DNA from: a virus
Strand: one strand, 5' to 3'
Length of the DNA stretch: 64,000 nt
IMG/VR virus record: IMGVR_UViG_3300009008_000010
Coordinates: 1-64,000 of that record
The notes under the pieces: generated by a model
The model's input: only the letters and a program-made list of their open reading frames with translations
What the model was told of the DNA's origin: nothing
Databases searched by the model: none
In this document: positions 32,486 through 48,448 of the stretch, piece by piece
Layout: each line of letters opens with the position of its first letter
How positions within the stretch are numbered: the stretch's first letter is position 1
Program-made: the position numbers and the translations under genes

Positions 32486-33205
32486 ATGGTACGCAACCAA
32501 AGTCAAGCTGCCGCTAAAAAGAGAAAAGAACAGCTTGAGCAAATCTTGTCAGATTTGCACAATTTAAACTGTAATCTATACACTCGTGAAGTATACATGC
32601 ATGGTTATTACAATGACTATGACGAGCCGGGTGTAGAATACCGCATGGCAACTACTTTCGAGAAGAACATAAGACTCCTCGATCAACAAGACCAAACTAA
32701 TATTTTGGTTCACATGCACACTTTTGGCGGTGAGTGGAATGATGGCATGGCTATGTATGACATCATTAGATTCGTAAAGTCTCCGGTCACAATTATCGGG
32801 TATTCTTGGGCAAGGTCTATGTCCAGTATAATTCCACAAGCAGCAGATTTAAGAATCCTTTTACCAGATTGTGATTTTATGGTGCATTATGGGTGGTATG
32901 GTGAGGAGAATCAATGGACTGCTGCAATGTCATCTATGGAATATGCTAAAAGATCAGAGGAAAGGATGTTGCGTGTTTATGCGAAAAGATGTATAAATGG
33001 AGAATACTTTCAAAATCGTTATAAGTCTCTCACCGAAGAGAAGGTGATGGAGTTTTTAGATAAAAAGATGAGAGAGAGAGGGGACTGGTGGATTGGCTCA
33101 GAAGAAGCCGTCTATTATGGTTTTGCAGACGGAGTTCTGGGTCAGCCAGGATTTGAAACGTTCGAGAAAACCAGAATTAAGAAAAAGGTGAAACTAGAGC
33201 TATGA
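32486..33205 (+). CDS. clpP: ClpP-like serine protease
   Basis: TFGGEWNDGMAMYD, ARSMSS (catalytic Ser), FMVH (His), ERGD (Asp), EEAVYYGFAD. Confidence 0.85.
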   Translation: MVRNQSQAAAKKRKEQLEQILSDLHNLNCNLYTREVYMHGYYNDYDEPGVEYRMATTFEKNIRLLDQQDQTNILVHMHTFGGEWNDGMAMYDIIRFVKSPVTIIGYSWARSMSSIIPQAADLRILLPDCDFMVHYGWYGEENQWTAAMSSMEYAKRSEERMLRVYAKRCINGEYFQNRYKSLTEEKVMEFLDKKMRERGDWWIGSEEAVYYGFADGVLGQPGFETFEKTRIKKKVKLEL

Positions 33206-33456
33206 CAGAAGGTGAACTACTACTGACAGACGAATTCCTACAGTTTTCCGGGGACATTGCAGCACTTATCCAAGAAAAGAAAACCCTCAAAGACGATTTT
33301 AAGAAAGTCTATGAGGAGTTTCAAACCAAACTCAAATCGGTAGATCAAAAAGCTGATAAACGATCTAAAGAGTTTGATGAGTGGAAGAAATCTAAAACTA
33401 AAGATCCTGTGCCGCACATGGAAGAACCTCCTAAATCCAAGACGGGTAAAAAGTGA
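33202..33456 (+). CDS. Hypothetical coiled-coil protein
   Basis: Coupled to neighbours by 4-nt overlaps. Confidence 0.65.
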   Translation: MTEGELLLTDEFLQFSGDIAALIQEKKTLKDDFKKVYEEFQTKLKSVDQKADKRSKEFDEWKKSKTKDPVPHMEEPPKSKTGKK

Positions 33457-34844
33457 AACACGAAATTTGTGGCGTTGAGCATCTTCACAGGCACACCCAT
33501 TTCAGTCTCCTAGACGGGTATGCGCATCCTGAAGAATATGCAGCCTATTCTAAATTGGTGAATCAACAATTCTTGTGCATTTCGGATCACGGGCAGATGG
33601 GGGCAATCCCTCGTCAAATAGCCACCTGTGAGAAAAACAGCGTGCATCCGATATTTGCGTGTGAACTGTATGTAAACCCCCTACAGCCAGCTTGTCGAAA
33701 TAACGATGAATATAAAAAATTCATGGATGACCTGGATGAAGAACAAAAGCGTATTCTTAAAAAGAGCTTCCATCTATTAGCCATAGCTCATAGCGATGAA
33801 GGTTATAAAAATCTCGTTAATCTGAGTTCATGGGCGTGGGTTAATGGTAAGGGCGGTCGCCCCAGAAGGCCCCGTGTGAACCATGAACAGCTTCTTAAAT
33901 ATAAAGAAGGTATCACGTTTAGCTCGGCCTGCTACAACAGTGAAATAGCTCAGGCTTTTGATGGTTTCTATGGTGGAAATGAGAATCGTGAAGCCGGTTT
34001 CGAGATGCTTGAAAAATATCTGGCGATGTTTGGAGAGCATTTTTTCTTAGAACTCATGCTTCTTGATTTTAAATCTCAAAAGCCTTATGATAAGTTCCTA
34101 GTTGAAGCTCATGCTAAATATGGCACTCCCGTAGTTCTTACAAATGATTGCCATTATTGCTTTCAAGATGATTCTAAAATGCAAAGATACTCCTTGATGA
34201 TCCAGACTGGAAAAACAATCAAGGAGATTACAGAGGTTCTGTCTCAAAACCCAGATGCGGATATGTTTGAACTTCAAGACACAAACCTCTGGATGAAGTC
34301 TGAAGATGAAATTAACGCTATGTGGGAAGCTAATTATATGGATACTGTCCCATATGAGATTTTTAAAGAAGCTAAAAGGAATAGTGTTAGAATATGCGAA
34401 AACGCTAAGGGAGTAGAACTGGATCGTAGTATGAAGTTGCCGGATTATCCTGATGCTGATGCTAAATTCAAAGAAGCTATAGGAATAGGCTTTAAAGAAA
34501 GAGGGCTTCCTCCCAACAGAACATACCTTGGTAGAATCAAAGAAGAATACGCATTGATTTGCAGGAAAGGCTTTTCTAGTTATTTCTTAATTCAAAAAGA
34601 AATGGTTGATGAAGCTAGAAGAATTTGTCCTGAAATCTTAGGTTGGGGCAACGGCTGTGAAGCCGTTGGACCGGGGCGCGGTAGTGCGGTTGGTGCTTTG
34701 GTTTGTTATTGTTTAGGAATTACAGACGTAGATCCTATAAAACATGACCTGCTGTTTTCTCGTTTCTTAAGTGAATCTAGGGGCGGTAAGCAGATGAAAC
34801 TTAGATTTGTGAATGTAGATCCAATTTTAGAAGGAGCGGCTTGA
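33453..34844 (+). CDS. dnaE: DNA polymerase III alpha, N-terminal part (PHP domain plus first half of the palm)
   Basis: HLHRHTHFSLLDG, SDHG, GYKNL, SAC, TNDCHY, GFSSYFL, GPGRGSAVG, LLFSRFL; stops just before the PDIDxD motif. Confidence 0.9.
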   Translation: MKHEICGVEHLHRHTHFSLLDGYAHPEEYAAYSKLVNQQFLCISDHGQMGAIPRQIATCEKNSVHPIFACELYVNPLQPACRNNDEYKKFMDDLDEEQKRILKKSFHLLAIAHSDEGYKNLVNLSSWAWVNGKGGRPRRPRVNHEQLLKYKEGITFSSACYNSEIAQAFDGFYGGNENREAGFEMLEKYLAMFGEHFFLELMLLDFKSQKPYDKFLVEAHAKYGTPVVLTNDCHYCFQDDSKMQRYSLMIQTGKTIKEITEVLSQNPDADMFELQDTNLWMKSEDEINAMWEANYMDTVPYEIFKEAKRNSVRICENAKGVELDRSMKLPDYPDADAKFKEAIGIGFKERGLPPNRTYLGRIKEEYALICRKGFSSYFLIQKEMVDEARRICPEILGWGNGCEAVGPGRGSAVGALVCYCLGITDVDPIKHDLLFSRFLSESRGGKQMKLRFVNVDPILEGAA

Positions 34845-35902
34845 TGGCCAGTAATGAAGACAAGGAATTGTTGGGAATTTTAAAAACCATGAATGATGGG
34901 TTTGATCAACATATGAACTCGAAACCTCAAGCATGTGGAGAAGCGGTGGCAGAGGAACCACGAGCTAACGACATATTTTCGGGTGCTTTGGTTCAATGGA
35001 CTACAGGCGACGGAAAGGTTTATTTTCCTGCGGGAGAAACCACCCAAAATCTTACTCCAGGTGTTTATGAGATTGGACATTGTGAAAGAGGGATTTATTT
35101 TCAGAGAATACCTGTTAAGACCGAAGGTTTAATTCATTTTCCTCAAACTAATATGGAGAAAGTGGTCGAGGAGATACAAACTTTTTGGTCGAAGGAAGAT
35201 AAGTTTCGTGAGTATGAATTGACATACAAACGAGGCATTATTCTCTGGGGGCCTCCTGGTAGTGGTAAAAGCTGCACGGTTCAGTTGATTATCAAAGATG
35301 TAATTGATCGTGGCGGTGTGGTGATTAAATTCACCCAACCAGCTTTGTTTATGCAGGGCATGAGGGATTTGAGAGAAATACAAACGGACTCCCCTGTGGT
35401 TGTTCTAATGGAAGATATTGATTCTATTTTAGAACATTATAGCGAGAGTATGGTTCTTAATATTTTAGATGGCGTTGATGAAGTAGATAAGGCTGTGTTC
35501 TTGGCGACTACCAATTATCCAGAAAGATTAGGAGCCAGGATTATTAATCGTCCTAGCCGTTTTGATAAGCGATTCAAGATAGGCCATCCCAACAAAGAGT
35601 CTCGACGCCTCTATTTTGAACACATAATTGGTGGTAAAAATAAGACTACAGTTCAAGAGTTTCAAGAGAGGTTTGGTGTTGATCTTGATCAATGGGTGGA
35701 TGATACCAAAGGTTTTTCTATTGCTCACTTGAAAGAATTGTTTGTTGCGGTTTGTATTTTGGGGGATAATTATAGTGATGCTATCGAAACTCTTGAAACC
35801 ATGAGAGAGCAGGTTATGGCTGAGAAGGAATTCGATTCACCCCATATGGGATTCGAGCAAAAAGCCTGCACGAAGAAAACAAGATACAATGAGTTTGAAT
35901 GA
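34841..35902 (+). CDS. AAA+ ATPase (single domain, BCS1/FtsH-like, no protease domain)
   Basis: KRGIILWGPPGSGKS, MEDID, LNILDG, TTNYPERL..RPSRFD. Confidence 0.9.
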   Translation: MMASNEDKELLGILKTMNDGFDQHMNSKPQACGEAVAEEPRANDIFSGALVQWTTGDGKVYFPAGETTQNLTPGVYEIGHCERGIYFQRIPVKTEGLIHFPQTNMEKVVEEIQTFWSKEDKFREYELTYKRGIILWGPPGSGKSCTVQLIIKDVIDRGGVVIKFTQPALFMQGMRDLREIQTDSPVVVLMEDIDSILEHYSESMVLNILDGVDEVDKAVFLATTNYPERLGARIINRPSRFDKRFKIGHPNKESRRLYFEHIIGGKNKTTVQEFQERFGVDLDQWVDDTKGFSIAHLKELFVAVCILGDNYSDAIETLETMREQVMAEKEFDSPHMGFEQKACTKKTRYNEFE

Positions 35903-36503
35903 AGTTTGGCACAAAGTATCTGTAATAACGCCCACCTGGAAGCGTCATAGGTTTTTACTAAACCTTACTCAAAATATGTTGGCCCAGGTGGGCGTTGAGT
36001 TTGAACACATCATTGTCTCAGATGGTTATGATGATGTTGCTAGGAGTGTCTGTGAATCTTATGGTTCAAAAGCCACCTACCCAGTTACATATGATGAAAT
36101 AGAGCATAAGGGTCACTATGGCGATTATGCTCGCACCAGAGGGTTAGAATTAGCCAAGGGTGAATATGTAATTTTCTTTGACGATGATAATGCCTATTTT
36201 CCACATGCTGTTACGACCTTATACGCAGCAGCGTGTAATCACGATATTGGAATAGCTCTTATTGAGCATTGGGATTTTCAAAGTCCCAACAAGCAGATCA
36301 TAGGCAGTCAGATTGCATACGGCCAAATTGATACCGCTTGTTATTGTGTTCGCAAAAGCCGTGCAGTTCCTTGGACGGGATTTACAGAAAATGGTGTTGG
36401 CACGGATTATCATTGGATTGAGCTAGTAAGCACTGGAGCCAATGTAAATCTTGTCCCAATAGTAATTGCCAGCCATCTTATTGAGAAACAACACCCTGTC
36501 TAA
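35889..36503 (+). CDS. Glycosyltransferase family 2
   Basis: VSVITPTWKR, IIVSDG, RTRGL..AKGEYVIFFDDDN. Confidence 0.88.
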   Translation: MSLNEVWHKVSVITPTWKRHRFLLNLTQNMLAQVGVEFEHIIVSDGYDDVARSVCESYGSKATYPVTYDEIEHKGHYGDYARTRGLELAKGEYVIFFDDDNAYFPHAVTTLYAAACNHDIGIALIEHWDFQSPNKQIIGSQIAYGQIDTACYCVRKSRAVPWTGFTENGVGTDYHWIELVSTGANVNLVPIVIASHLIEKQHPV

Positions 36504-36514
36504 TAAATACCAGT

Positions 36515-37195
36515 ATGAAAGTGAAGGACTACATATTGGTTGGCACAATGGTTGCCATTATCTTGGGTGCTGTTCTGTGGAGAGATTTTCGCAATCACTT
36601 TCCACATAAAGAGGAAAATCTTCTTTCTGATTTTCCTGTCTTAAAGCAACCTGATGGTATAAGCTGTGGGCCTACGTCTGCGGCTATGGCTCTTAATTAT
36701 TTGGGGCGAGAGGCAACAATAGAGGGTTTGAAGAGCAAGGCTAAAACCACTTGGTATAAATCGGGAGACACAGAGATAGGGATGACTGCCCCAGATGTTT
36801 TGGCGAAAGCTATTCCAGGTAAGTTGAAAACCGGCAGTTTAGATGAAATAAAATATCACATTGATCAAAACAAACCTGTAATTGTTTTACTTCGCAGTGG
36901 TCAAACAACGTGGCATTATGTTGTGGTGATTGGATATACTGAAGATAATATCACAATGGCCGACCCAGCAGGATATATTCACTCTAAAGAAAATGATATG
37001 TTTTTAAGTGCTTGGAATTTCTCTACAGATATGTCTGGAAATGAAGTCGCTGAATCTTGTCCTATGTGTGGCGGTGATGGGGAAATAGGAATAGCTGCTT
37101 GTGAAGTGTGCAATGAAGGCCGAGTTGATCTTATTCTTATGGCTTTTATTTTAACCGAAATCAAGCCTTACACCATGATTATTGTTTCAATTTAA
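36515..37195 (+). CDS. Membrane-anchored C39-like cysteine peptidase
   Basis: TM helix; QPDGISCGP (Q/C), HYVVVIGY (H), ADP (D); ATAAATA at 36503. Confidence 0.8.
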   Translation: MKVKDYILVGTMVAIILGAVLWRDFRNHFPHKEENLLSDFPVLKQPDGISCGPTSAAMALNYLGREATIEGLKSKAKTTWYKSGDTEIGMTAPDVLAKAIPGKLKTGSLDEIKYHIDQNKPVIVLLRSGQTTWHYVVVIGYTEDNITMADPAGYIHSKENDMFLSAWNFSTDMSGNEVAESCPMCGGDGEIGIAACEVCNEGRVDLILMAFILTEIKPYTMIIVSI

Positions 37196-37595
37196 CGCTT
37201 CTGACATTTTCGTTGTTTTGCAACAATTCAAGTAGTGTTGATCTGTTTTTGCGCGTAGACATTTTGACTTCATAAATTCCGCCTTGCTTGTGTTCAACAG
37301 ACACAATTTGCCCTCCGCTATTTTCTATCGTTGTTGGAATTGCTTGAGGATCGACAACATCTACAACAACTGTAATTTGTTCAACTGACATTGTGTTGTA
37401 GGTCATTATTCCGACACCGCCCAAGCATACAGCCAGAAGCATGATGCCTATATTAAGAGGAAAGCGCGATCTCTTTCTCTTGATGACAATTCTTCCCATG
37501 TCAACAACCCCCATGTCAGGGTATTCTTCGCCTTCGTCTCTTGCAGATTGCAAATTTCCCGGCAAATCTCTGAGTGGCATTGGTTTTTTATTCAT
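37179..37595 (-). CDS. Single-TM hypothetical protein
   Basis: GGAG SD; one hydrophobic segment. Confidence 0.6.
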   Translation of the reverse strand: MNKKPMPLRDLPGNLQSARDEGEEYPDMGVVDMGRIVIKRKRSRFPLNIGIMLLAVCLGGVGIMTYNTMSVEQITVVVDVVDPQAIPTTIENSGGQIVSVEHKQGGIYEVKMSTRKNRSTLLELLQNNENVRSVKLKQ

Positions 37596-37620
37596 TTTAT
37601 CTCCGTTTCAATCCTTTAAG

Positions 37621-38397
37621 TTATATATCATTCTCACAATGGTTTAATTTTTGGAAAGCCTCTAGTATCGGCTTTGGATTTAGTTGCTCGTTTACGCGCA
37701 CGGGAATTATTTTGGAGAATGGAGGTATTCTTGAGTTTGGGCTGACATCGCCAAATAAGCCGATGCTGTCTGTGCCAAGTGAATTTGCAATGTGTAAAGG
37801 AGCAGAGTCTACGCCTAAGAACATATTAGCAGCATTTATGATGGACATTAATTGTCGCAATGTGGTTTGGTCCCTCAAATCTAAATCTTGATTATCTAGC
37901 GGGGGTATATCGTGACCCTTGTTGCCAACAATAACTAATTTATATCCCGCCCCTTTAATTATTTGCAGAATAGGCTGCCATTCATCTTTAGGCCAAGATT
38001 GTTTTTTTCTGGGTATTTTAGGGGGTCTTTTGCCCGTGTCTACTACCACCCATTTTTCATCAGGATGAAGTATTGAAAACCCATACTTTTTCTCTTTCGA
38101 TGATAAAAAAATTCGAGGCGTTAGTTCAAGTTCTGGAAGATGGAGACGAAATTTTATTAAATATGACCGTATTGCTAGACCCTTTGATGCTTCATAAGCA
38201 TCTGTGAGGTTGAACGTTCTGCTGTTTGAGGGTTTTTCTTCTCGGAAGCCAGTTACAAGTGGGTGGTTTTTAAATATTTCAGGGTATCTGGTGGAAATGA
38301 ATATTTGGTCATATCCTATTGCACCCAATGCTCTTATTGTGGGTTCTGCAAACAGCACATCTCCAATTGCCACTCTTCTGATAATAAATGCTTTCAT
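37621..38397 (-). CDS. Glycosyltransferase family 9 (heptosyltransferase-like)
   Basis: AIGDVL, DLRDQTTLRQL, GVDSAPLHIA, IGLFG. Confidence 0.88.
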   Translation of the reverse strand: MKAFIIRRVAIGDVLFAEPTIRALGAIGYDQIFISTRYPEIFKNHPLVTGFREEKPSNSRTFNLTDAYEASKGLAIRSYLIKFRLHLPELELTPRIFLSSKEKKYGFSILHPDEKWVVVDTGKRPPKIPRKKQSWPKDEWQPILQIIKGAGYKLVIVGNKGHDIPPLDNQDLDLRDQTTLRQLMSIINAANMFLGVDSAPLHIANSLGTDSIGLFGDVSPNSRIPPFSKIIPVRVNEQLNPKPILEAFQKLNHCENDI

Positions 38398-39284
38398 AAT
38401 TCACTTATAAAAGTTCTAACCTCAGCAACAAAATCTTCCACTGTTGGGAGATTGATCTGTTTTAGAAACTCATGTCCTTCTTCTGCTCGATTAAATAAAA
38501 GGCGAGCGTCCTCAAACTTATCATAAAAAAGAGGATAGTCCGGTGTTAGGTATTCTTCTATTGACGGGTGCCGATTGACGACCAAAGGTGTATTTCTTAG
38601 AATGCATTCTACAATTATATTACTAGCACCGCAATCTATGAATTCAGCAAAAACACAACTGGATGACAACCACCTGTTTAATCTATCATTGCTGATTCTC
38701 TTTTTTATAACCACGTCATTGTCTAGTATAGGTCTTCTTAATTGAGTTCTGATTTTTGGGGGTTTTATTTTTACCTTGTTGTAGCCTTCAATGGGCGGTA
38801 GTTGATCTAATGCCAGGGAGTTTTTCAAAAAGAAGCCATATTGAAGTATTCTTTTTTGATTGTGAAATCTATCAATTGAAAACCTCCTCTCGACTGGTGG
38901 CATGGTGAATTTTAGTATTTTGTAAGGACAATCTACATGATTTGCAAAAGTTTGAGAAGATAGATAGGATTCAGCCACATACTTCGATAGGAAAATTACA
39001 CCTTTAAGGTTCTTTCGAGATCGATGCCAACACCTGGATTTTATCAGTTGTTTTCGATAAGACTTATGATTAGGGATGTGAAATACGCCCACCCAAGGAC
39101 GCCAAATAGGCTCATGTGTGTTTTTTCTTAAAAAAAAATCTGGAAAGTCCTTTAGGATTATGCTGTCTTTGGCTGTTTTAGAACTATACTCGGCCAGTCG
39201 TTTGACCAAATATGGCCATCCCGCAATGTGTTGCGTTGCATTTTCAGATCCTATTGGGCTGGTATTACCAAGATAATATTCCAT
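38394..39284 (-). CDS. Putative GT-B glycosyltransferase
   Basis: SNIIVECI.RNTP, EEYL.PDYPLF, similar to GT4-like C-terminal motifs. Confidence 0.55.
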   Translation of the reverse strand: MEYYLGNTSPIGSENATQHIAGWPYLVKRLAEYSSKTAKDSIILKDFPDFFLRKNTHEPIWRPWVGVFHIPNHKSYRKQLIKSRCWHRSRKNLKGVIFLSKYVAESYLSSQTFANHVDCPYKILKFTMPPVERRFSIDRFHNQKRILQYGFFLKNSLALDQLPPIEGYNKVKIKPPKIRTQLRRPILDNDVVIKKRISNDRLNRWLSSSCVFAEFIDCGASNIIVECILRNTPLVVNRHPSIEEYLTPDYPLFYDKFEDARLLFNRAEEGHEFLKQINLPTVEDFVAEVRTFISEL

Positions 39285-39320
39285 AGCATTATTTAGTATA
39301 TAGTATTAAAGGAGTTACCA

Positions 39321-40253
39321 ATGGGGAAGAAACACATATTTGTAATAAGCGTTATTTGCCTTTTCATTTTATTTTTTTGGAATAGTGGTGGAGCATCTGT
39401 TGATGTGCAGATTTGCCCTATTTCGGATTATGTGGCCAAAGTCCAGTGTATTCAGGAAGATTCGCCTTTTTCCATACGTCTTTTGGTTCTCAAGCATTGT
39501 TTAGAAAGCATGGCTGATGGGGATGCTAAATTAGCCATACAAGCAGCGAACGTAGCTAAATCGAGAGGATTGAGAATTAGGGATATTGGTAATCACTATG
39601 TTGATAAAAATGGGGAAATCCAAAGGGCCAGTTATGCCAATGAAATAGTCTGGGGTCAGACGCAATATTTAGACATTGATCAGTTTAAAGCGTTTGTTAA
39701 ACAACAAATGGTTGTAGGTGCTGAACCCGGTGACACTTTGGTTTTGTTTACTATTGGACATGGTAGTAAATCGGGGTATTTAGATACGCTGGGACAGAGA
39801 CCAGAAGTTATGAAGGCTTTAGCTGAAGCAGCAGAAGAGACGGAACAAGAGACGATGTGGTGGCAATTAAGTTGTTATGCTGCTGCGTCGTTGCCTGCCA
39901 TTTCCACTTTGAATGAAAACCAGCAAGATTTATTTAGCATCTGTGCTAGTTCGCCTGCTAACAGAGAGAGTCCAGCTTATGTGGAAGGCGAACACATGGA
40001 GAAGGTTTTCACTGCTATGGCAGATAGAAGCCCTGAGATTGACCCAGACCAGGATGATATGGTGGTAGCAATCGAGTTGGGTGGTTTTTTAGAAAAGAAC
40101 GCAGAGCGAGGTCGTGGCCGTTTAGTTTTTGCCAGAAGCGACCGAGAGGTTATCTTTGGTTTAAATTTTGCTCAACGCATACCTATTATCGACAGGAATA
40201 GCCCACAGAGAGAATATCCAAGAGATTATATCCCAATGCCAGAAGGAGGATAA
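39321..40253 (+). CDS. Secreted/anchored caspase-hemoglobinase-fold peptidase candidate
   Basis: Signal/TM; hydrophobic strand ending IGHG, later strand ending SCYA (His/Cys dyad pattern). Confidence 0.5.
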   Translation: MGKKHIFVISVICLFILFFWNSGGASVDVQICPISDYVAKVQCIQEDSPFSIRLLVLKHCLESMADGDAKLAIQAANVAKSRGLRIRDIGNHYVDKNGEIQRASYANEIVWGQTQYLDIDQFKAFVKQQMVVGAEPGDTLVLFTIGHGSKSGYLDTLGQRPEVMKALAEAAEETEQETMWWQLSCYAAASLPAISTLNENQQDLFSICASSPANRESPAYVEGEHMEKVFTAMADRSPEIDPDQDDMVVAIELGGFLEKNAERGRGRLVFARSDREVIFGLNFAQRIPIIDRNSPQREYPRDYIPMPEGG

Positions 40254-40254
40254 T

Positions 40255-40407
40255 ATGGCTAGATTGATTAAATCAAGTAAGGTTAAAAAGTTGAATTGGC
40301 CTGCACACACGGGCCACAGTGAGCACAAACGAGAAAAGTTTGACAGACATGGAAGGAAATGGTGTAGGGTTTGCAAGAAATACACTAATGAGTGCAAGCA
40401 CAAATAA
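40255..40407 (+). CDS. 50-aa basic zinc-finger-like protein
   Basis: AGGAGG SD; CRVC...CKH. Confidence 0.55.
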   Translation: MARLIKSSKVKKLNWPAHTGHSEHKREKFDRHGRKWCRVCKKYTNECKHK

Positions 40408-40445
40408 AAAAACCCATCGTGAGGCGTTGGGCTTCACGATGGGTT
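40406..40445 (-). terminator. Intrinsic (probably bidirectional) terminator
   Basis: AACCCATCGTGA/TCACGATGGGTT stem flanked by an A-run, between convergent genes. Confidence 0.8.
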
Positions 40446-40946
40446 AAAATTAACTACAGCTTCACAGAAATCCTTCAATTCTTGATCGTCCCATGTGTTT
40501 TTTGCATATTGGGCCATAAGCGATACAAATTGAATGTTGTCTTTCGTATATGGTTTAGATGAATCTATACGATCAAGGCTGGCTCTGTCAGGTGTTCTCG
40601 GTAAAGATTCCCTTGTGTTTTTTGGAGTTTTTAATTTCCAACCAGTGTAGGGACATTTGCCGTTTTGTTTTTCCCATTGTTTTTTTAAATCTTCTACTGT
40701 GATGAAAAACGGTTTTCTTTTGCAGTTGCGTAAGATTTTCATAAAAAAACGAAATGGAGAAAGATCGTCTGCCTTATTATCGGGGATAAGATTTTCAGGA
40801 TTGGCAGGCAGGTGTGTGTGGTTGTCTTTTCCCACACATTGAAGTGAGCAGTAATTTCTTCTTCCTAATTTTTTGCTTCGATTGACTTCTGCTTTTCTTC
40901 TTTTGAATTCTTTTCCGCAAGTTTCACAAGTTAGTTGTATGTACAT
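40434..40946 (-). CDS. Free-standing HNH-like homing endonuclease
   Basis: CETCG...YCS..C zinc motif; QNGKCPYTG, SLDRIDSSKPY..DNIQFV; start moved to MYIQL behind GGAGG. Confidence 0.75.
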   Translation of the reverse strand: MYIQLTCETCGKEFKRRKAEVNRSKKLGRRNYCSLQCVGKDNHTHLPANPENLIPDNKADDLSPFRFFMKILRNCKRKPFFITVEDLKKQWEKQNGKCPYTGWKLKTPKNTRESLPRTPDRASLDRIDSSKPYTKDNIQFVSLMAQYAKNTWDDQELKDFCEAVVNFNPS

Positions 40947-40985
40947 AAAAAACGCCTCCATGCCATTTATATAGTATGGAGGCGT
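40947..40985 (-). promoter_or_regulatory. tmRNA terminator hairpin that sequesters the HNH SD and carries a late-promoter-like motif in its loop
   Basis: Minus strand: ACGCCTCCAT-ACTATATAAATGGC-ATGGAGGCGT-TTTTT-ATG. Confidence 0.7.
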
Positions 40986-40996
40986 CAGTTTTGAAG

Positions 40997-41349
40997 TGGA
41001 GGCGGTGGGCTATGCTCCCACGTCCAGTCTATCTATCCCCAAAGCGTCTACGTGTGTAGTTTATTGCTTGTGTCTCGCTTCATGGTGTTGCAACAAACAA
41101 AAGCGCCAATCAGCCAGCAACATCTTGTCTTACTTAGGTCGTCGTTGCAGGAACCTAAGAGTGGCCAACTTTTGCGACTAGACTTCAGACCCCGTTAGCT
41201 AAGGGTTCTTTGTCCAGGGCTACTGTTACGCAGCCAGTTGAAGTGGTCTTTCGACAACTAAATTATTGATCAAGTTTTTACGTGGCCCCTTGATCAACCA
41301 CGACACGCGACTTTGGCTCAACGATACCTGTCGAACCTAATTCGCCCCC
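40997..41349 (-). ncRNA. ssrA: tmRNA (one-piece)
   Basis: 5' GGGGGCGAATTAGGTTCGAC and 3' GGACGTGGG-AGCATAG-CCCACCGCCTCCA form a tRNA-Ala-like acceptor stem with G3.U70; tag ORF (A)VERPLQLAA-stop at 41255..41226 after UAGUU; 353 nt; CCA not encoded. Confidence 0.92.
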
Positions 41350-41357
41350 GAAGTATC

Positions 41358-41687
41358 CTATTTAGTGGTTTCAGCTACAATTTTACCGTCTTCAACCTTT
41401 CTGGTCGAGTGCAAAAAAGCTGCTTCTTTACGAAGTTCTTTCATCATTGCGGCTTGAACCGGATCTTTCCACCCCACAGGGGGGGCCGCAATGAAGTCTT
41501 TGCCGTCTGCCGCTTTCCCCATTTCATCAATCTGATCCATAACAGCCGATTGTTGGGGAATGGGACATTCAGGCCCATCGCAAGGCGGCTCCTCTTTGCA
41601 TCCGGTCAGTATGACCAGCAAGGCAAGCGGAGTCAGCCAAAATAGGAAATGAGGAATTGCTTTAGTCCAAAACTCAGGCTTCGTCAT
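41358..41687 (-). CDS. Lipoprotein
   Basis: LLVILTGC lipobox; ends just upstream of the tmRNA. Confidence 0.65.
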   Translation of the reverse strand: MTKPEFWTKAIPHFLFWLTPLALLVILTGCKEEPPCDGPECPIPQQSAVMDQIDEMGKAADGKDFIAAPPVGWKDPVQAAMMKELRKEAAFLHSTRKVEDGKIVAETTK

Positions 41688-42063
41688 CTTTCAATCTTCC
41701 TGTGATTTTAAGAAAGTGCTTCCAGCGTTTGTCAAACCTCAATCTAAGTCGTTGGTATTCCTGCCATTCAGGGTCGGCGTTTCTATTTGCTTCATATTGG
41801 CGAGCTTCTTGTGAGGTCATAGCCCCTCTTGCTGCCGATTTGAAGTCTTCTTTTTGCACTACCCTTTTGAGTCTTACCTCGACTTCTACTATACCGCACC
41901 CCTTGTGGGGGGGTATAGCTTCTGGACTGGGGTATAGCGTGTTGCCAGATATGGCACCGCCGAGTTCATAATCCCAGTCTGTTTTGTCCATGAAGCAGGT
42001 GACTACATCGTTCTCGTCTCCATGTAGAGGTTCAGTAAAAACCCCCTCGTCGTGATTGATCAT
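41674..42063 (-). CDS. Hypothetical protein
   Basis: 129-aa ORF; TATAAT promoter-like element upstream. Confidence 0.65.
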   Translation of the reverse strand: MINHDEGVFTEPLHGDENDVVTCFMDKTDWDYELGGAISGNTLYPSPEAIPPHKGCGIVEVEVRLKRVVQKEDFKSAARGAMTSQEARQYEANRNADPEWQEYQRLRLRFDKRWKHFLKITGRLKDDEA

Positions 42064-42181
42064 CTGTCTGCGGCTCGACGCCGCTATTGCTAAGGTTCAT
42101 ACCTATTATAGTTGATTTTCGGCCAAAGTGAAGCCGTATCGTTTTTTTGGAAAAAATGGATACATACAGTAGAGGTTTGTC

Positions 42182-42838
42182 ATGCAATTTAAAGAATGGG
42201 TTGAAATCAGTATCGAGTTTGAGGAGTGGTTGAAAGAAAACCATCCTGAACTACTTGAGGAAGATTGGAAAGACATGCTGCGCAGAGCAGCTATGGGAGC
42301 AGCAATGGCTGGCGCTGGTGCTGGGGCAATGAATCCAGCAGATGCGGCGGCGGATCAATTTTTCCGTCAAAGACAGCCACCGGGAGTATCGGCATACGAG
42401 CGACCGGCTCAATTACCAAGGGCGGTTAGTGCAGATAGAACGCAAGGAGCGGAAGAGCCTGGACCCATTAGAGGCGAAAGTCCTATGTCGAAGAGGGCTG
42501 GTGAATCAGGGGTTGGGCTTAATGGTGAGACTTATACTATTGCGGATAATGAGACCATAAAATGGCCCAAACATAAAGCAGTGTCCCATCGAGCCAATAA
42601 CAAATTTACTATTTATTATCCTTCTGAAATGGCAGCTAAATTTAACGAAAAAACAAGACACTATTTTTTCAGTGATGCAAATAAAAGAGCGTTGAGCCAC
42701 CAGAAGGTTTACATGGGCGTTAGTGATCGATATTTAGGACATGCATCGTTTGGCGATCCTTCTTTTAAAGTGTTAGAAGATGGTAGACTTATTATTTCGT
42801 TTTCAATTGGAGGCGTTCAGAGAATAAGGATGAGATAA
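42182..42838 (+). CDS. Putative internal head protein
   Basis: MQFKEWVE...FEEWL N-terminus, Ala/Gly-rich helix; ATACATA at 42160 and GAGG SD. Confidence 0.65.
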   Translation: MQFKEWVEISIEFEEWLKENHPELLEEDWKDMLRRAAMGAAMAGAGAGAMNPADAAADQFFRQRQPPGVSAYERPAQLPRAVSADRTQGAEEPGPIRGESPMSKRAGESGVGLNGETYTIADNETIKWPKHKAVSHRANNKFTIYYPSEMAAKFNEKTRHYFFSDANKRALSHQKVYMGVSDRYLGHASFGDPSFKVLEDGRLIISFSIGGVQRIRMR

Positions 42839-42839
42839 T

Positions 42840-43232
42840 ATGAAACGAGATCCTAATAACGCTGTTCTTGCAGGAGTTTGTGCCGGGTTGGCAAAGCACC
42901 TGGGAGTCAGTGCCTTATTGATGAGAGTTATTTTTATTATAGGCACACTATGGTTAGGTGCGCCTTTGTTAATTTACATACTGCTGGCGATTTTAATGCC
43001 GCCTGAAAGAGCAGAGTTTTTTGAGAGTTTGGAGAAACTACACAGGGATGATGAAAAGGGTATGATTGGTGGCGTTTGTGCTGGTATTGCGAATGTTTCC
43101 AGTATAGATGTTACTTTAATTAGAGGGTTATGGATTATTTCGGCTATATACTTTGGCTTCGGAATTATCCCTTATGTCATTCTGTGGATTTTACTTCCAA
43201 AAAAAAGTGACGAGGCGTTAATAAATAAATAA
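42840..43232 (+). CDS. pspC: Tandem PspC-domain membrane protein
   Basis: Two copies of R...GVCAG(L/I)A...R...Y(I/V)(L/I)L...P. Confidence 0.85.
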   Translation: MKRDPNNAVLAGVCAGLAKHLGVSALLMRVIFIIGTLWLGAPLLIYILLAILMPPERAEFFESLEKLHRDDEKGMIGGVCAGIANVSSIDVTLIRGLWIISAIYFGFGIIPYVILWILLPKKSDEALINK

Positions 43233-43257
43233 ACTAAAAGTTTGAGGGTGGCGAATT

Positions 43258-44394
43258 ATGTCTTATAGATCATTCACTGAATACTTAGATACTAAAAATC
43301 ACAACGGCAAGGGTAAAATGGTTGAAAAGCCTTCTACGGAGGAGGTTCCAGATTTTAAAGGGAAGCCTAATCCCGAAGGCAATGAGCCGTGTAAATGTAA
43401 AAACATCAAGGATAATCAAGTTGTCGAAACGATGACTAAATTTAAAGAGTACCTTGATGGTAATGGTAAAATGAAAAAGCCAACAGTGGCTTTAAATGTG
43501 AATTTTCCGAAACAGGATTCGCCACCTTCTCAATCTATGCCGCCCGCTCCAGGTCTTGGTCAAGGTAAACCAGCACCTTATACACCGAAGAAGGGTGGTA
43601 AGGCAGGAGAAAAAGGTTTTGCTGATCAAGGGTGTTGCCCAGCTTACGAACCAGATACAAAAAATGCACCCGCTCCTAAAGAGTCTTTGCCCAAATCAGG
43701 TGGCGGCGGGAAACAACCGCAGATAGAAGCCGTAACTGAAATGAGTTTGGCGGAAATGACCTCTTATATTAATGAGCAAAATTATGAGCCAGATGGTTCG
43801 TTTGCTCCCCCAATGGTTACGGCGTATATGCCTGGGAAGTTTATGCCAGATCCAGTTGAGGCGATTGATTACGTGACGCACTTAGCCGCCGTTAATCCCG
43901 CTTTGATGGAAACCATGATTCGTGCTCTAAAATACAAAACCAGTATGGGTTATATTGTCAGCGAAATGGCGAAACATCCCGAAACCTTCAAAGAATTGGC
44001 CGCACTTTTAGAGAGCGAAGATGGACTGAAATATGCTGGTTCTCTTTGTAGGTCTATGAATGATCTTTATTCTAATTACATGGAACAGTTTGAGTCTTTA
44101 AACGAATCCGCTCTTTCTCCCCCTCTAGGAGCCGATGATGAAGATGATGAAGAACTGGATGATGAGTTAGAAGATGATGACGAAGAAGGTGATGAAGATT
44201 TAGGTGATGAAGAAGACGAAGAGGGCGAAGATGAAAACGATCCGTTCGCTGGCGGCGAAGAAGGCCCAGTGCCACCACCTAAAAAGAAGCCCAAAAAACG
44301 TTTTGGACATAATAATATGATTGACGCTATGGGCGGTCATGGACACATGTTGGATGCCATGAAAGGCATGTGTAAACGTTGTGGGGTAATGTAG
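43258..44394 (+). CDS. Large acidic/Pro-rich late protein, putative internal head or scaffold-like protein
   Basis: Twice-repeated (S/K)F(T/K)EYLD..NGK motif, long D/E tract; ATAAATA at 43221. Confidence 0.65.
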   Translation: MSYRSFTEYLDTKNHNGKGKMVEKPSTEEVPDFKGKPNPEGNEPCKCKNIKDNQVVETMTKFKEYLDGNGKMKKPTVALNVNFPKQDSPPSQSMPPAPGLGQGKPAPYTPKKGGKAGEKGFADQGCCPAYEPDTKNAPAPKESLPKSGGGGKQPQIEAVTEMSLAEMTSYINEQNYEPDGSFAPPMVTAYMPGKFMPDPVEAIDYVTHLAAVNPALMETMIRALKYKTSMGYIVSEMAKHPETFKELAALLESEDGLKYAGSLCRSMNDLYSNYMEQFESLNESALSPPLGADDEDDEELDDELEDDDEEGDEDLGDEEDEEGEDENDPFAGGEEGPVPPPKKKPKKRFGHNNMIDAMGGHGHMLDAMKGMCKRCGVM

Positions 44395-44422
44395 TTGAAA
44401 AATAGGTTCCATTTGCTATAAT
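44395..44422 (+). promoter_or_regulatory. Sigma70-type promoter of the DnaE C-terminal gene
   Basis: TTGAAA-16 bp-TATAAT with extended -10 TG. Confidence 0.6.
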
Positions 44423-44430
44423 TAACTTCT

Positions 44431-47292
44431 ATGGAACCTAAAAAAAGACTCATACAATTGTGCTTAAAGGCCCTTCAAGAGATGGGCCTTTTTGATGAAC
44501 CTCACAAAAATCGCCTTATGCTAGAAGCGAAGGAAATAGACGCTCAAAGTGAGTTTGATTATTTCCTTGAACTCCACGATAAGTGCGTTAAATACCCAGA
44601 AAACCAAAACAATCTACTGGTAGCTTATCTTCTGGGTCTTGCTCCTGATTTTAACATTGATGCGGAACCCGCATTCGTTATCGGGGAAATGCCGGATATT
44701 GATGTTGATTATCTGCGCCCCGTTCGGGATCGCCTCAAAAATGAGTGGGCACCTGAGCATTATGGTCAAGAATATGTTTGTAACATCGGCAGCTACAACA
44801 GTTATGGTATGCGAAGTTCGTTGATTGATGTTGCTAAAATATTCGGTGAAGATCGTGACCGGATGCTTGAACTCACCAAGAATCTCCCCGATAAGGATGA
44901 AGAGGGCGATCCTATCACATGGGAAAGCGTTCTCAAAATCTATCCGGCTTTGAATACTTTTTGTGAGGAAAACCCGGAAATATTTGATGTGGCCAAACGA
45001 CTCTCGGAAAGCGATTACGGCCCCAGATACAAGAGTTCTGGTAAACACGCTGGAGGTTTAATTGTATCATCTAAGCCTCTTGCGGATTTGGTGCCTCTGG
45101 TAGTTGATAAAGATGGTCTTATCACTTCCGCTTGGCCCGAAGGACTTAACACGCAAGACCTTGGCCCAGTCGGGCTTATTAAATTTGACTGCTTAGTAAT
45201 TACAAACCTTCAACAGATTGCTGATATTGCAGAATTAGTTAAACAAAGACACCAATTAAACGCTATTTGCTCTACAGATGGAAAAAACAATTGGTCAGAT
45301 ACGAGTTATTTAAATGATGAAAAAGCCATTGAGATGGCAAATGAAGGCGATTTAAGATGTATCTTTCAGTTTGATTCGCCAGGGATTCGTGGACTTGTTA
45401 AATCTGGTGGCGTCACAGATTTTGATGATTTGGTGGCTTATACAGCTTTATATCGTCCTGGTCCTCTCGGAATGGGCATGTCGGAGAAGTTTGTAAAACG
45501 TAAGAAGGGCGAAGAGCAATACGAGATACACCCGATTATGGAGCCTATTCTTGGCAGCACCTACGGAGTTATGGCATACCAAGAACAGGTTATGAAAATC
45601 CTGCACGCAGTTGGTGGAGTTCCTCTTAAAGATTGCGAAAAGGTAAGAAAAGCGATCAGTAAGAAGAAGGAAGAAATATTTGAAAAAATCAAGCCGCAAT
45701 TTATAGAAGTCGGTTCTGAACGATTACAGCGTGATTGTGATTGGGAACTTGAAGAAGATTTTAATGAAGTTATCCGCAGGGAATATGATCCCAGCGAAGA
45801 CATGGATTATAATATTAAAAAACTCTCAGGCATCCCCTATAGAGACGGCAAACCCAGTCCTTACCCTAAGAGCATGGGTCTGGTGGCCGCTTTGTTAAAA
45901 ATGAAATACGCTGATGCTGCTCGAACCCAACCCATTCTTCACAAATATGCCGCTGCTGCTGAAGCTCGGTCTTTGTGGGAACAAATTGAAGCCTTTGCAG
46001 CTTATGGATTTAATAAAAGTCATGCTGTGGCTTACACCTATATCTCTTCTCGCCTCTTATATTTGAAGGCTAATTATCCTGTTGAATTTTATGCTGGGAT
46101 TCTCAAGTCTGAAACTAAGGAAGGCAAGATCAAGGAGTATAAAACTGAGGCGGCTATTCACGCTGTTGAGATCAAACCTTTGGATTTGAACCGTTCTGGT
46201 GTCAGGTTTCAGATTTATCAGGAAGGAAGTGACCCCGCTCTCACAGACCCGATTTATTTCGGATTTTCTAACATCAAGGGCATTGGGCACGAATCGGCCC
46301 AGAATATGGTGGATCACCAGCCCTACAGTGGGTTTGATGATTTCTTGTTTAGGTTTGGAACAGAGGCAAAAGTTCTCAAGCCTTTAGTGTGTTTGAGGTT
46401 GTTTGGCGATGATAATTTGGAGGATTTATGGAGATATTACGACACTTACAAGAAATTATCTAAGAACCGCAAGGATAGCGAAGTGAGGAATCGCAAGTCC
46501 TTAATTAGATATGAGGAAGAATTAAAAGAGTTGCTGGCTGTTGACCCGGAGGCGGTAATTAGTTGGGATGAAGGCAATTTAGAAATATGGGAAGCAAAGT
46601 ATGATGAAGACGAGATAAGAGAGCAGGTTTGCACTAAAGCCGGTTCTCCAAAATATGGTAAATTAGATCAGGTGAAATTTAATCGTTGGAAGAAATTAAA
46701 AAGTCTCTATAACAGGCGAAACAAGTGCATAAATGGTCAAGCTGAGAAGATGCGCGAATGGGAAGAAAACCCTTTTACGTTTGATAAATTTCGCCCCGAT
46801 ATAGCTGAGGAAGAGGTGTTTATAACCAAAGAGATGCAGTCTTATTTTGATTCCTTGGAGTTGGCTCAAGAGAAGTTCTTAGGGTTCCTGTGGGATCATC
46901 CTTTGGTAAAGTCGCCTGATTTTACTAATTTAACTTACTCTCATCTAAGGGAATTACTGGACGAGAACCCCAACATAACAGATGCTCCGGTAGAAATTCT
47001 TACAATTGAGATAAGACGTAGAGATTGGAAAAGCGGTAAAGGCTTTAATTACACCATAAATGCAGAAGATGCAAATGGTGAAAGGAACTATGTTACTGTT
47101 TGGCCAGATGACTTTGATCGATTTAATGAAGAATTCACTGAGGGGATGTTATTGAGGTTGAGAGTGCAACCACCAACTAAATATGGTTACACTTTGGATG
47201 GCCCTCCCAAATGGAAGCGGCACACCCTTCCCGACAAAGATAGAGATGTTAGAGTTGTAAAACTTAGGTATCCTGTGGAGGAAATAACGTGA
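44431..47292 (+). CDS. dnaE: DNA polymerase III alpha, C-terminal part (catalytic Asp palm, fingers, HhH, OB)
   Basis: MPDIDVDY, GKHAGG, GLIKFDCL, IFQF, ALYRPGP, YQEQVM, YGFNKSHAVAY, GFSNIKGIG; no PHP domain. Confidence 0.92.
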   Translation: MEPKKRLIQLCLKALQEMGLFDEPHKNRLMLEAKEIDAQSEFDYFLELHDKCVKYPENQNNLLVAYLLGLAPDFNIDAEPAFVIGEMPDIDVDYLRPVRDRLKNEWAPEHYGQEYVCNIGSYNSYGMRSSLIDVAKIFGEDRDRMLELTKNLPDKDEEGDPITWESVLKIYPALNTFCEENPEIFDVAKRLSESDYGPRYKSSGKHAGGLIVSSKPLADLVPLVVDKDGLITSAWPEGLNTQDLGPVGLIKFDCLVITNLQQIADIAELVKQRHQLNAICSTDGKNNWSDTSYLNDEKAIEMANEGDLRCIFQFDSPGIRGLVKSGGVTDFDDLVAYTALYRPGPLGMGMSEKFVKRKKGEEQYEIHPIMEPILGSTYGVMAYQEQVMKILHAVGGVPLKDCEKVRKAISKKKEEIFEKIKPQFIEVGSERLQRDCDWELEEDFNEVIRREYDPSEDMDYNIKKLSGIPYRDGKPSPYPKSMGLVAALLKMKYADAARTQPILHKYAAAAEARSLWEQIEAFAAYGFNKSHAVAYTYISSRLLYLKANYPVEFYAGILKSETKEGKIKEYKTEAAIHAVEIKPLDLNRSGVRFQIYQEGSDPALTDPIYFGFSNIKGIGHESAQNMVDHQPYSGFDDFLFRFGTEAKVLKPLVCLRLFGDDNLEDLWRYYDTYKKLSKNRKDSEVRNRKSLIRYEEELKELLAVDPEAVISWDEGNLEIWEAKYDEDEIREQVCTKAGSPKYGKLDQVKFNRWKKLKSLYNRRNKCINGQAEKMREWEENPFTFDKFRPDIAEEEVFITKEMQSYFDSLELAQEKFLGFLWDHPLVKSPDFTNLTYSHLRELLDENPNITDAPVEILTIEIRRRDWKSGKGFNYTINAEDANGERNYVTVWPDDFDRFNEEFTEGMLLRLRVQPPTKYGYTLDGPPKWKRHTLPDKDRDVRVVKLRYPVEEIT

Positions 47293-47792
47293 GTGAAGAA
47301 GTAGTCATTAATGAAGATAATTTTAGCGAGTATTTTTTTGATGCAAGGACGCACAAACCCCAACGGGGACAGTGCATGGCCATATATACTGCTGTGGCCG
47401 AATTAGTGGATGGTCAGTTGAAGCGAGATGTGGTTTATCTTTTGAGCAGTACGCCCAAGGTGAGCGAAAGCATACAACTCCTTCGTAAAATAGCCTTGAT
47501 GAATGAAGAGGATGCTATCAGTATTTGTCTGGATATTGCGAGACGATTGCATGAAGGACAAACATCAGATGTGATTTGTGAGCATCCTCACGAATATAAA
47601 TTTGAGGCGGGATATTACACGAACAAGGAACATATCCCCACGGATGACAAGCATTGGGCTATGGTAGAGCTTACCAACTTGGAGGAGTTTATCGAAGAAA
47701 CTGAGGAAGGTACCATCAAAACCAAGATCGTAATGAATCCAACCGAAGAAGAAATAAAAGAATTTAAAGATCAAACCGAGGATAATACATAA
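47289..47792 (+). CDS. Hypothetical protein
   Basis: GGAGG SD; GTGA overlap with the dnaE stop. Confidence 0.7.
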   Translation: MSEEVVINEDNFSEYFFDARTHKPQRGQCMAIYTAVAELVDGQLKRDVVYLLSSTPKVSESIQLLRKIALMNEEDAISICLDIARRLHEGQTSDVICEHPHEYKFEAGYYTNKEHIPTDDKHWAMVELTNLEEFIEETEEGTIKTKIVMNPTEEEIKEFKDQTEDNT

Positions 47793-47821
47793 ATAGTGGT
47801 TGGGTAGTTAATAAAGGATAT

Positions 47822-48448
47822 ATGATGGACAAGAAAGATTTTCAAAATTGGCAAGATATGTGGGAAAAGGCAATGGACGAAGATGTTCCAACGCCAGCAG
47901 CGACACCACCAGAACAACAATCTAGGCAGGTTTATTTTAATAATCCGAGTGGTGCTGCCGATCCTCCGCAATCAGACAATTCATCTGTAGACAAAGAATA
48001 CTGGGATCAGATTTATAAAGCCTCTATGCACCCAGGCGATTCTCCCGATCCTTTACAGGCTGCTTTCGGCGCAGAAAGTGAAATTTTAACTGAAAAAGCC
48101 GAAGATATGAATGTAACAACGCCCAAACCAGTGGCACCCAACCAATCCAAGGATGAATTGGGAGATATTGCCAAAACCAAGGCAAATGCTGCCAATCCTA
48201 TTGATCCTGGTTCTATTGGCAAGGATCAAGATTACAAACCCAACCTTGCTGATGCTCACCAATTAGAGCAATTGCATAATTTAAAAATCAATCTTTATGA
48301 GCTTGAATGCAAGCTAAATACTAACGATTGTCTCGCTAAAACCGACAAAGGCAAAAAAATTCAGAATCAAATTGATGCACTGAAAACTCATATAGATGAG
48401 TTGAGTGATACGATCACTCCCGATTTCTTGCAATCATATTTGTCGTAA
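47822..48448 (+). CDS. Hypothetical late protein with C-terminal coiled coil
   Basis: ATAAATA at 47789; AAGGA SD. Confidence 0.7.
   Translation: MMDKKDFQNWQDMWEKAMDEDVPTPAATPPEQQSRQVYFNNPSGAADPPQSDNSSVDKEYWDQIYKASMHPGDSPDPLQAAFGAESEILTEKAEDMNVTTPKPVAPNQSKDELGDIAKTKANAANPIDPGSIGKDQDYKPNLADAHQLEQLHNLKINLYELECKLNTNDCLAKTDKGKKIQNQIDALKTHIDELSDTITPDFLQSYLS

Follow-up and report, generated by a model that had tools for sequence, protein, structure and literature searches.

A C-family DnaE divided between two genes in huge phages, with a duplicated half-palm at the cut

A replicative polymerase is usually assumed to require a catalytic core that is in one piece. In the alpha subunit of DNA polymerase III (Pol III alpha) the GS motif and a set of arginines bind the incoming deoxynucleoside triphosphate (dNTP), while three aspartates bind metals. 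How might such an enzyme work if these elements were encoded by separate genes? The question is raised by a 64,000-nucleotide stretch of viral DNA (the window), positions 1 to 64,000 of the IMG/VR virus record IMGVR_UViG_3300009008_000010, in which two distant genes, here called A and B, encode the N-terminal and C-terminal parts of a DnaE polymerase. The full record has 120,240 bases and is rated 24% complete by CheckV, and is therefore a fragment of a huge phage; the sequencing runs that contain the stretch are labelled as marine or marine-sediment metagenomes. We consider it probable that A and B together make up a single C-family DnaE replicase of two chains, held together non-covalently around a composite active site. 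The two genes and their parts are:

33453..34844, plus strand: gene A, N-terminal chain of the split DnaE, 463 amino acids (open reading frame (ORF), Pfam, PDB sequence search)
33480..34058, plus strand: PHP domain, A residues 10-202 (Pfam PF02811, E 7.2e-30)
34452..34781, plus strand: half-palm copy 1, A residues 334-443, comprising helices, the GPGRGS loop and the LLFSRFLSESR helix (Pfam PF07733)
34782..34841, plus strand: A tail, residues 444-463, consensus RGG[KR]x[MLI][KV][LIF][RKE]F (tails of 120 A-type proteins)
44431..47292, plus strand: gene B, C-terminal chain of the split DnaE, 953 amino acids (ORF, Pfam, PDB sequence search)
44431..44685, plus strand: half-palm copy 2, B residues 1-85, a decayed duplicate according to profile comparisons, a hidden Markov model (HMM) and the structure model
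44692..44709, plus strand: PDIDVD catalytic strand, B residues 88-93 (motif; alignment to Thermus aquaticus DnaE from residue 460)
45181..45189, plus strand: KFD with the third catalytic aspartate, B residues 251-253 (motif, invariant)
45208..45711, plus strand: fingers domain, B residues 260-427 (Pfam PF17657, E 1e-40)
46165..46389, plus strand: HhH domain (HHH_6), B residues 579-653 (Pfam PF14579, E 3.6e-10)
46984..47196, plus strand: C-terminal beta-barrel, OB-like, B residues 852-922 (AlphaFold strands; OB-fold matches at E 0.03-0.1)

A preliminary description of this DNA, made from the letters alone, had assigned to gene A a PHP domain and the GFSSYFL, GRGS and LLFSRFLSESR motifs, with an end just before PDxDxD, and to gene B, 9.6 kb downstream, PDIDVD, KFD, fingers and HhH; the ORFs and Pfam agree with this for both genes, as do the PDB alignments for A. 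The OB domain that it also placed in B is represented in the AlphaFold model by the beta-barrel, whereas Pfam gave no match for an OB domain in B and the OB-fold matches are weak. Gene A starts with a GTG that overlaps the stop codon of the upstream ORF. Nine positions of its PHP domain (H12, H14, D21, H46, E71, H107, C160, D232 and H234), which we take to be metal ligands, are invariant or at least 90% conserved among 79 A-type sequences, and its motifs include R409, G410 and S411 within GPGRGS and R437 and R443 in the LLFSRFLSESR helix.

The alignment to Escherichia coli and T. aquaticus DnaE that the preliminary description had called for shows where the enzyme is divided. For gene A the alignment covers residues 82-396 of E. 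coli Pol III alpha and 5-410 of Mycobacterium tuberculosis DnaE1, while that of B starts at E. coli 398 and T. aquaticus 460; likewise, A residues 354-443 match positions 19-98 of the DNA_pol3_alpha profile (PF07733) and B residues 86-255 match positions 100-259. Because A aligns up to E. coli 396 and B from 398, the cut falls within the Pol-beta-like catalytic fold, after the LLFxRFLxxxR helix and before the PDxDxD strand. Both chains extend beyond it. A stops 20 residues past R443, the position of E. coli R396, and so ends in an extra tail, GGKQMKLRFVNVDPILEGAA, whose counterpart is absent from canonical DnaE, and in B 85 residues precede E86-M87-P88-D89-I90-D91-V92-D93. One gene call on record (P0123, 936 amino acids) starts B at M18 (44482); the homologues favour M1 (44431), which coincides with the start in 85% of 34 homologues. 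The nearest GenBank phage, LR756511.1 (595 kb), has a single-chain DnaE of 1,179 amino acids that lacks the duplication described below; A is 53% identical to its residues 3-433 and B is 51% identical to it from residue 406 on.

The first 85 residues of B had been described as a degenerate copy of the end of A, and profile methods bear this out; BLASTP of A against B gave nothing significant, and the duplication is visible to profile methods only. When a profile of B 1-85 (33 sequences) was compared with a profile of A 320-463 by hhalign, B 2-46 aligned with A 334-379 (probability 93.4%, E 2.5e-7). An HMM of B 1-85 matches canonical DnaEs at the equivalent place (P0279, residues 369-425, independent E-value 2.2e-8; P0281, 4.5e-8; P0003, residues 331-373, 2.2e-6), and in tblastn searches of canonical phage dnaE genes B from residues 1-5 covers the same DNA as A 343-444. 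These comparisons identify B 1-85 as a true, decayed second copy of A from about 334 to 443. The absence of GRGS and of both arginines from this copy also stands: YPxNxNN takes the place of GPGRGS and the arginine helix is lost, the second half of the module reading YPENQNNLLVAYLLGL where A has GPGRGSAVGALVCYCLGI, with the Arg-bearing helix replaced.

What each chain has kept is strictly conserved. R409, G410, S411, R437, F438 and R443 never vary across the 79 A-type sequences, whose mean column identity is 57%, and the same holds for P88, D89, D91, V92, D93 and K251-F252-D253 across 34 B-type sequences, where R28, E32, Y44, N58, N61, L68 and G85 of the decayed copy itself are invariant too. 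Judged by these patterns, the decay of the two copies is complementary and fixed, with GS and the arginines kept in A and DxD and KFD kept in B. Mean column identity is 0.69 in the A tail (residues 444-453, with G444/G445 at 99% and F452 at 95%) and 0.54 in B 1-85, as against 0.68-0.78 in the A domains, 0.69 in the B palm and 0.12 in the variable insert B 432-510; because the two junction extensions stand so far above that insert, both are evidently under purifying selection. We also considered the QMKLRF of the tail as a decayed DxD strand; the match is one residue out of register, and two of its positions, K449 and R451, are only 75% and 63% conserved, so that this is a weak idea only.

The split layout is a widespread family trait and is not peculiar to this phage. 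The preliminary description had proposed a search of related huge phages for the same breakpoint, and this search found it. A-type genes occur in eight IMG/VR records at 52-69% identity, and six of these also have a B-type gene on the same strand, 6.9-15.2 kb downstream of A; all three records that are at least 85% complete hold both (G001, 527 kb; G002, 436 kb; G006, 572 kb with terminal repeats). The related-locus search with B gave one distant locus, and the B genes of the relatives came from genome searches. At the protein level, of 7,999 candidates scored in a near-length search with A, 3,090 matched at E ≤ 1e-20. The best 120 of the 3,090 are 414-619 amino acids long, contain the PHP domain and half-palm only, are 57-82% identical and come from contigs of up to 634 kb. 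Of these 120 A-type proteins, the window's A included, 116 match an F[SEA]RF[LIM] filter, and the tails listed read FSRFLSxxRGG[KR]x[MLI][KV][LIF][RKE]F with a stop usually 0-50 residues further on (about 95 in P0092), some ending in ...MKLRY. A search with B 1-130 gave 40 matches at E ≤ 1e-5 among 107 candidates, none of the 40 with a PHP domain. The stand-alone protein clusters comprise at least 120 of A type and at least 40 of PHP-less B type.

Five related records, two of them complete, were searched for other polymerases. PF07733 matches only the A and B pieces in them, and they gave neither a second dnaE nor a family-B polymerase (PF00136). Four of the five (G001, G002, G006 and G008) have a family-A-like ORF of 408-439 amino acids (e.g. 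G002:C1:46483-47145), which matches the C-terminal part of PF00476 only. The split DnaE is thus the only polymerase with replicase architecture found in the five records, and not the only polymerase-like gene.

Single-chain relatives take two forms. In canonical ones the distance from FxRFL to PDxDxD is 12 residues in 20 of 20 close full-length relatives, and these enzymes form one clade (support 100 and 99 in the A-part and B-part trees, respectively), which sits inside a clade of split plus canonical forms (again 100 and 99). Quick trees nest the canonical clade within the split forms at 86-91% support in the Shimodaira-Hasegawa-like approximate likelihood-ratio test (SH-aLRT). For the A part, an approximately unbiased (AU) test does not reject monophyly of the split forms (p 0.908), the constrained tree being 28.5 log-likelihood units better than the free quick search. 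From these trees the canonical clade may be either sister to the split clade or nested in it.

The second form carries the duplication in one chain. The DnaE of one such genome (G010/L013) has 1,071 amino acids, is about 30% identical to A and B, and runs in the order live GS half, FERFLNPGRGNQYKIDF, linker, decayed second half (...KQNSSNFITFFVAGIA...) and LPDIDTDID; the B-module HMM matches it twice, at 338-386 and 458-516, and its palm is divided at PF07733 profile positions 98/100. In all 21 loci at least 50% identical to it (L046-L066, contigs of up to 379 kb) the two motifs are 115-122 residues apart; the other 59 of the 80 loci lie outside this count, 58 being unclassified by the motif filter and one canonical. 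The family resembles A and B in having a live GS/Arg half, an RG(T/N)QYKID-type stub, a linker, a decayed half and a live PDxDTD strand, and differs from them in being a single ORF of 1,070-1,127 amino acids with about 30% identity to either. Since this single-chain family has the same tandem duplication, the duplication is not tied to the split. The gene may have been duplicated internally and only later cut in the linker, or a split pair may have been re-fused in the single-chain family; the family forms a long branch in the trees, where the order of events is not separable. A description of such a duplicated single-chain DnaE family was not found in the literature searched.

Modelling of the complex, which the preliminary description had also suggested, paired A 1-463 with B 1-530, with separate alignments for the two chains, in three runs with three controls. 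The interface score ipSAE was 0.84 (0.85, 0.84 and 0.84 in the three runs) and 0.01 for the best control; in the calibration 58 of 80 solved complexes scored this high, as did 2 of 110 mismatched pairs, counts that apply only roughly because the alignments were our own, and the score speaks of likeness to a DnaE arrangement and not of binding. The runs share at least 94% of their contacts, with a predicted local distance difference test (pLDDT) score of at least 78 for the partner. In the model A 404-405, the strand before GPGRGS, touches B 93-95 at the end of the DxD strand and A 388-392 touches B 94-98, contacts which presumably match the canonical palm arrangement of solved DnaE structures, and PHP residues A 122-130 touch B 220-225. 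The modelled interface extends beyond that of canonical structures to the A tail (436-453, 455 and 457-461) and to the decayed module (B 32-70). Modelled alone, A has a mean pLDDT of 90.6, dropping to about 50 in the tail from residue 441 and to less than 50 over 448-455. B alone has a mean of 83; its N-terminal module (78-93) has helices at 3-17, 23-39, 42-50 and 63-67, and a low-confidence hinge at 84-86 connects it to the palm. The best fold matches of the B model are DnaE structures (7pu7_A, E 6.6e-30, template modelling score 0.51).

We propose the following arrangement. A and B would be made from separate transcription units and would assemble without covalent joining. A would supply the PHP domain, the likely proofreading nuclease, together with the GS loop and the arginines that hold the incoming dNTP; from B would come the aspartates that bind metal, together with thumb, fingers, HhH and OB. 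A tandem half-palm duplication, decayed in complementary ways, flanks the cut in the Pol-beta-like palm, copy 2 in B keeping helices only and now preceding the live DxD strand. The A tail and the B N-terminal module would form an extra docking surface, or clasp, that folds on binding and does without splicing the job of a split intein. The composite active site and the clasp are both predictions of this model; we infer the clasp from the placing of both tail and module in the modelled interface. The preliminary description had suggested a heterodimer arising by partial duplication and subfunctionalisation: the composite site fits the invariant residues, the spread of the pair and the model, and duplication after the split is only one possible order.

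Several observations weigh against this arrangement. The GS-loop copy of B keeps the invariant N58 and N61 and folds alone, so that B could own a complete palm with the A copy placed elsewhere. The duplication also occurs in single-chain enzymes and need not have arisen to hold split halves. The tail is only 75% conserved at K449 and 63% at R451, and one sub-clade has V/E there. The pass of the complex model may be a memory of solved single-chain DnaE structures. Among the relatives, two of the eight records, fragments rated 21% and 23% complete, have no B on the contig, and in one of these, G004, none lies within about 48 kb of A on either side; and in G003 (L031, a 77-kb record) the B gene has an in-frame TAA after about residue 125 (...GNYT*FKI), which may be an error, a pseudogene or recoding.

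The first of these points leads to an alternative, raised in the preliminary description too, in which B is a self-sufficient polymerase, YPxNxNN replaces GS, and A is a PHP proofreading accessory anchored by its half-palm, its GS motif and arginines being non-catalytic or having another nucleotide role. B 1-85 and 86-255 do form a contiguous full palm topology that folds confidently without A, N58 and N61 never vary, and all nine PHP positions are conserved in A. We nevertheless think this unlikely: R409, G410, S411, R437 and R443 of A are invariant across the 79 sequences of 57% mean column identity, which would be hard to explain for a vestige, the model places the GS strand of A and not B's own loop beside the DxD strand, and both arginines are absent from B. 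A further elaboration of the two-chain reading is possible, although we hold it only tentatively and would sooner doubt it than assert it: the A tail would complete the decayed module of B and the live DxD strand of B the live half of A, an earlier internal duplication, which single-chain relatives retain, having made the core safe to cut, and the canonical sister clade may have healed by deleting the junction module.

A divided dnaE could also be made whole by splicing. Were A and B joined covalently by an unrecognised form of protein or RNA trans-splicing, a canonical single chain would do the work. Some features of the relatives speak for this. Inteins are common in their A-type genes at sites other than the split, as in-frame inserts of about 400 amino acids near GPGRGS or residue 233, and many cluster representatives have LAGLIDADG or intein Pfam matches. 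A-type genes with such inserts are:

L010, 9983-12592
L028, 9251-11887
L012, 8144-10759
L016, 9899-12208, in which the insert matches Hint, Intein_splicing and related families

The last of these loci belongs to G009 (497 kb), where a GIY-YIG/NUMOD3 endonuclease gene moreover breaks dnaE at the same R|PDxD position (L016 12208-13353 and 13883-18851). The palm piece of 176 amino acids that follows the GIY-YIG gene has no start codon at its beginning, and the fingers are in a further ORF 5 kb on. The missing start codon suggests an intron, although Rfam finds none in L016 11800-19000 at E ≤ 0.1. For the pair in the window the evidence points the other way. Pfam finds no Hint or intein family in A or B at E ≤ 0.01, in line with the earlier report of no split-intein motifs at the junctions, and Rfam finds no group I or II intron in window positions 33000-48000. 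The new termini have no C, S or T to act as splicing nucleophile, the A tail starting with G444-G445 and B having E86 followed by M87-P88 where one would be needed. The 85 extra residues of B are DnaE-derived and conserved as protein, and genes on the opposite strand lie between A and B. Covalent joining is, in our view, very improbable.

The DNA between the two genes, with the promoter-like sequence at its end, contains:

34845..44430, both strands: spacer of 9,586 bases with about 13 ORFs and a transfer-messenger RNA (tmRNA) gene (ORF calls, Pfam, Rfam)
40434-40961, minus strand: HNH/endonuclease VII-like ORF within the spacer
40994-41349, minus strand: full-length tmRNA gene (Rfam RF00023, 113 bits, E 2.4e-43)
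44395..44422, plus strand: sigma-70-like match TTGAAA-16-TATAAT, 11/12 with TG, 8 nucleotides before the B ATG (pattern only)

The spacer ORFs include an AAA ATPase, GT2 and GT9 glycosyltransferases, a C39 peptidase and a PspC-domain protein; the endonuclease ORF is one of about 13 spacer genes and adjoins neither end of the spacer. Because opposite-strand genes sit between them, A and B cannot be on one transcript and would belong to separate transcription units. A promoter of its own had been ascribed to B: the sigma-70-like match is there, whereas the region upstream of B has three promoter-like matches, not above shuffled sequence (mean 3.6). No Shine-Dalgarno sequence was found before the B ATG at 44431, and with this ATG 8 nucleotides past the -10-like box the mRNA of B may be leaderless.

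Whether the two genes truly lie so far apart is a question of assembly. The check made use of contigs only. Logan contigs from two runs bridge the 3' end of A into the downstream genes (33723-37389 and 33126-36295) and the upstream DNA into the 5' end of B (44001-48000 and 44229-46539), all with 0 differences; the runs belong to one study and one is possibly the window's own source sample, so that they are not independent support. No joint between the end of A and the start of B occurs among the Logan contigs of the two runs; stretches left uncovered in runs X3 and X4 count neither way. No repeats flank the spacer, which thus shows no trace of the target-site duplication of a recent insertion, nor any excision ends. 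In two runs a contig of low depth (2.6 and 3.5, as against a depth of about 6-8) leads from 42683 back to 34594 across 39 further letters. Neither position showed repeats, and the joint could reflect a minor variant, the junction of a duplication or circle, or mere chance.

That back-joint, with the origin of the record as a metagenome-assembled fragment rated 24% complete and the use of contigs only, is what can be said for an artefact, be it a misassembled contig or a dnaE pseudogene broken by insertion. We find such an explanation scarcely credible: the same split, tail and N-terminal module are found again in records of independent assembly, where identity is 48-69% and the spacers differ, and both ORFs are intact and under purifying selection, with both gene ends bridged without a difference.

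How far is such an enzyme new? Single-chain DnaE (E. coli 2HNH and 5FKU, T. aquaticus 2HPI and 3E0D, M. tuberculosis 5LEW and 7PU7) has the same domains in the same order as A plus B. A and B carry the marks of a C-family DnaE (PHP, palm with GS, DxD, KFD, fingers and HhH), but their core is split over two ORFs; the single-chain enzyme is one polypeptide with 12 residues from FxRFL to PDxDxD, whereas A and B are two, with a tail and an 85-residue module added. The closest precedent comes from group 2.2 (T4-like) jumbo phages, which encode a minimal Pol III alpha as two proteins from distant genes: NTP is bound by the N-terminal protein, Mg2+ and template DNA by the C-terminal one, and the two are proposed to reconstitute one enzyme (Iyer et al., 2021, Viruses 13:63, PMC7824862). 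As described there, the minimal enzyme is cut at the same place in the fold and its genes are far apart, as in A and B. Unlike that version, which is without PHP or other DnaE domains, A plus B make up a full-length enzyme (PHP, palm, thumb, fingers, HhH and OB-like). The minimal form accompanies a family-B replicase, whereas PF00136 matches none of the five related records here, and the accessible description does not mention a duplicated, complementarily decayed half-palm such as that at the A/B cut.

Other phage enzymes in pieces offer more distant parallels. In phage Aeh1 the ribonucleotide reductase NrdA is split by the mobE endonuclease into NrdA-a and NrdA-b, whose assembly and activity both depend on C- and N-terminal tails that are new at the break (Crona et al., 2010, NAR 39:1381, PMC3045599). 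As with A and B, an essential phage enzyme there has its active site spread over two genes with neither RNA nor protein splicing. A and B differ in that their flanks are a duplicated part of the enzyme itself, that their spacer is 7-15 kb of varied genes, and that they are known here from sequence and models. The 'fractured genes' of phages, whose halves are ligated by split inteins (Dassa et al., 2009, PMC2677866), and the cyanobacterial split dnaE likewise divide a DNA-metabolism gene or replicative polymerase into two distant pieces, but rely on trans-splicing inteins, whereas Pfam finds no intein parts in A or B. In the literature searched (supplements not covered) we met no account of a split DnaE that is full-length, lacks an intein and has its junction duplicated, and matches to 'split DnaE' concerned inteins. 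The two-chain reading is plausible and partly supported; the arrangement is neither unique to this phage nor wholly new, and is a variant of known genes in pieces.

Two further observations concern dnaE genes and their surroundings. In distant phages, dnaE ORFs of 628-669 amino acids end at the palm/fingers boundary, about position 182 of the B-core HMM (loci L067, L073, L077, L085, L093, L095, L100, L105, L109 and L118), which looks like a different, recurrent split site. Directly upstream of A on the plus strand lies a conserved block of four genes:

27313-29373, plus strand: PrkA
29644-30855, plus strand: DUF444
30855-32432, plus strand: SpoVR
32486-33205, plus strand: ClpP-like protease

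The same order also precedes A in the relatives L006, L007, L009, L010, L012 and L028, so that a block of the kind found in bacterial stress or sporulation-type operons is present in huge phages.

In a large, old clade of huge phages, then, a full-length DnaE without an intein is maintained in two pieces, with the elements that bind dNTP on one side of the cut and those that bind metal on the other. Annotation pipelines name both halves 'DNA polymerase III alpha', and surveys of replicases may miscount them or call them fragments. The three coexisting forms, canonical, duplicated single-chain and split, make the order of events testable. If the two chains share one site, they would be a natural experiment in assembling a Pol-beta-fold active site from pieces, and would show both how partial duplication makes such a cut tolerable and how a phage genome can take up kilobases of cargo within a gene that it needs. 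Reciprocal exchange of parts between the two chains, were it true, would offer essential enzymes a general way of surviving a cut through the active site.

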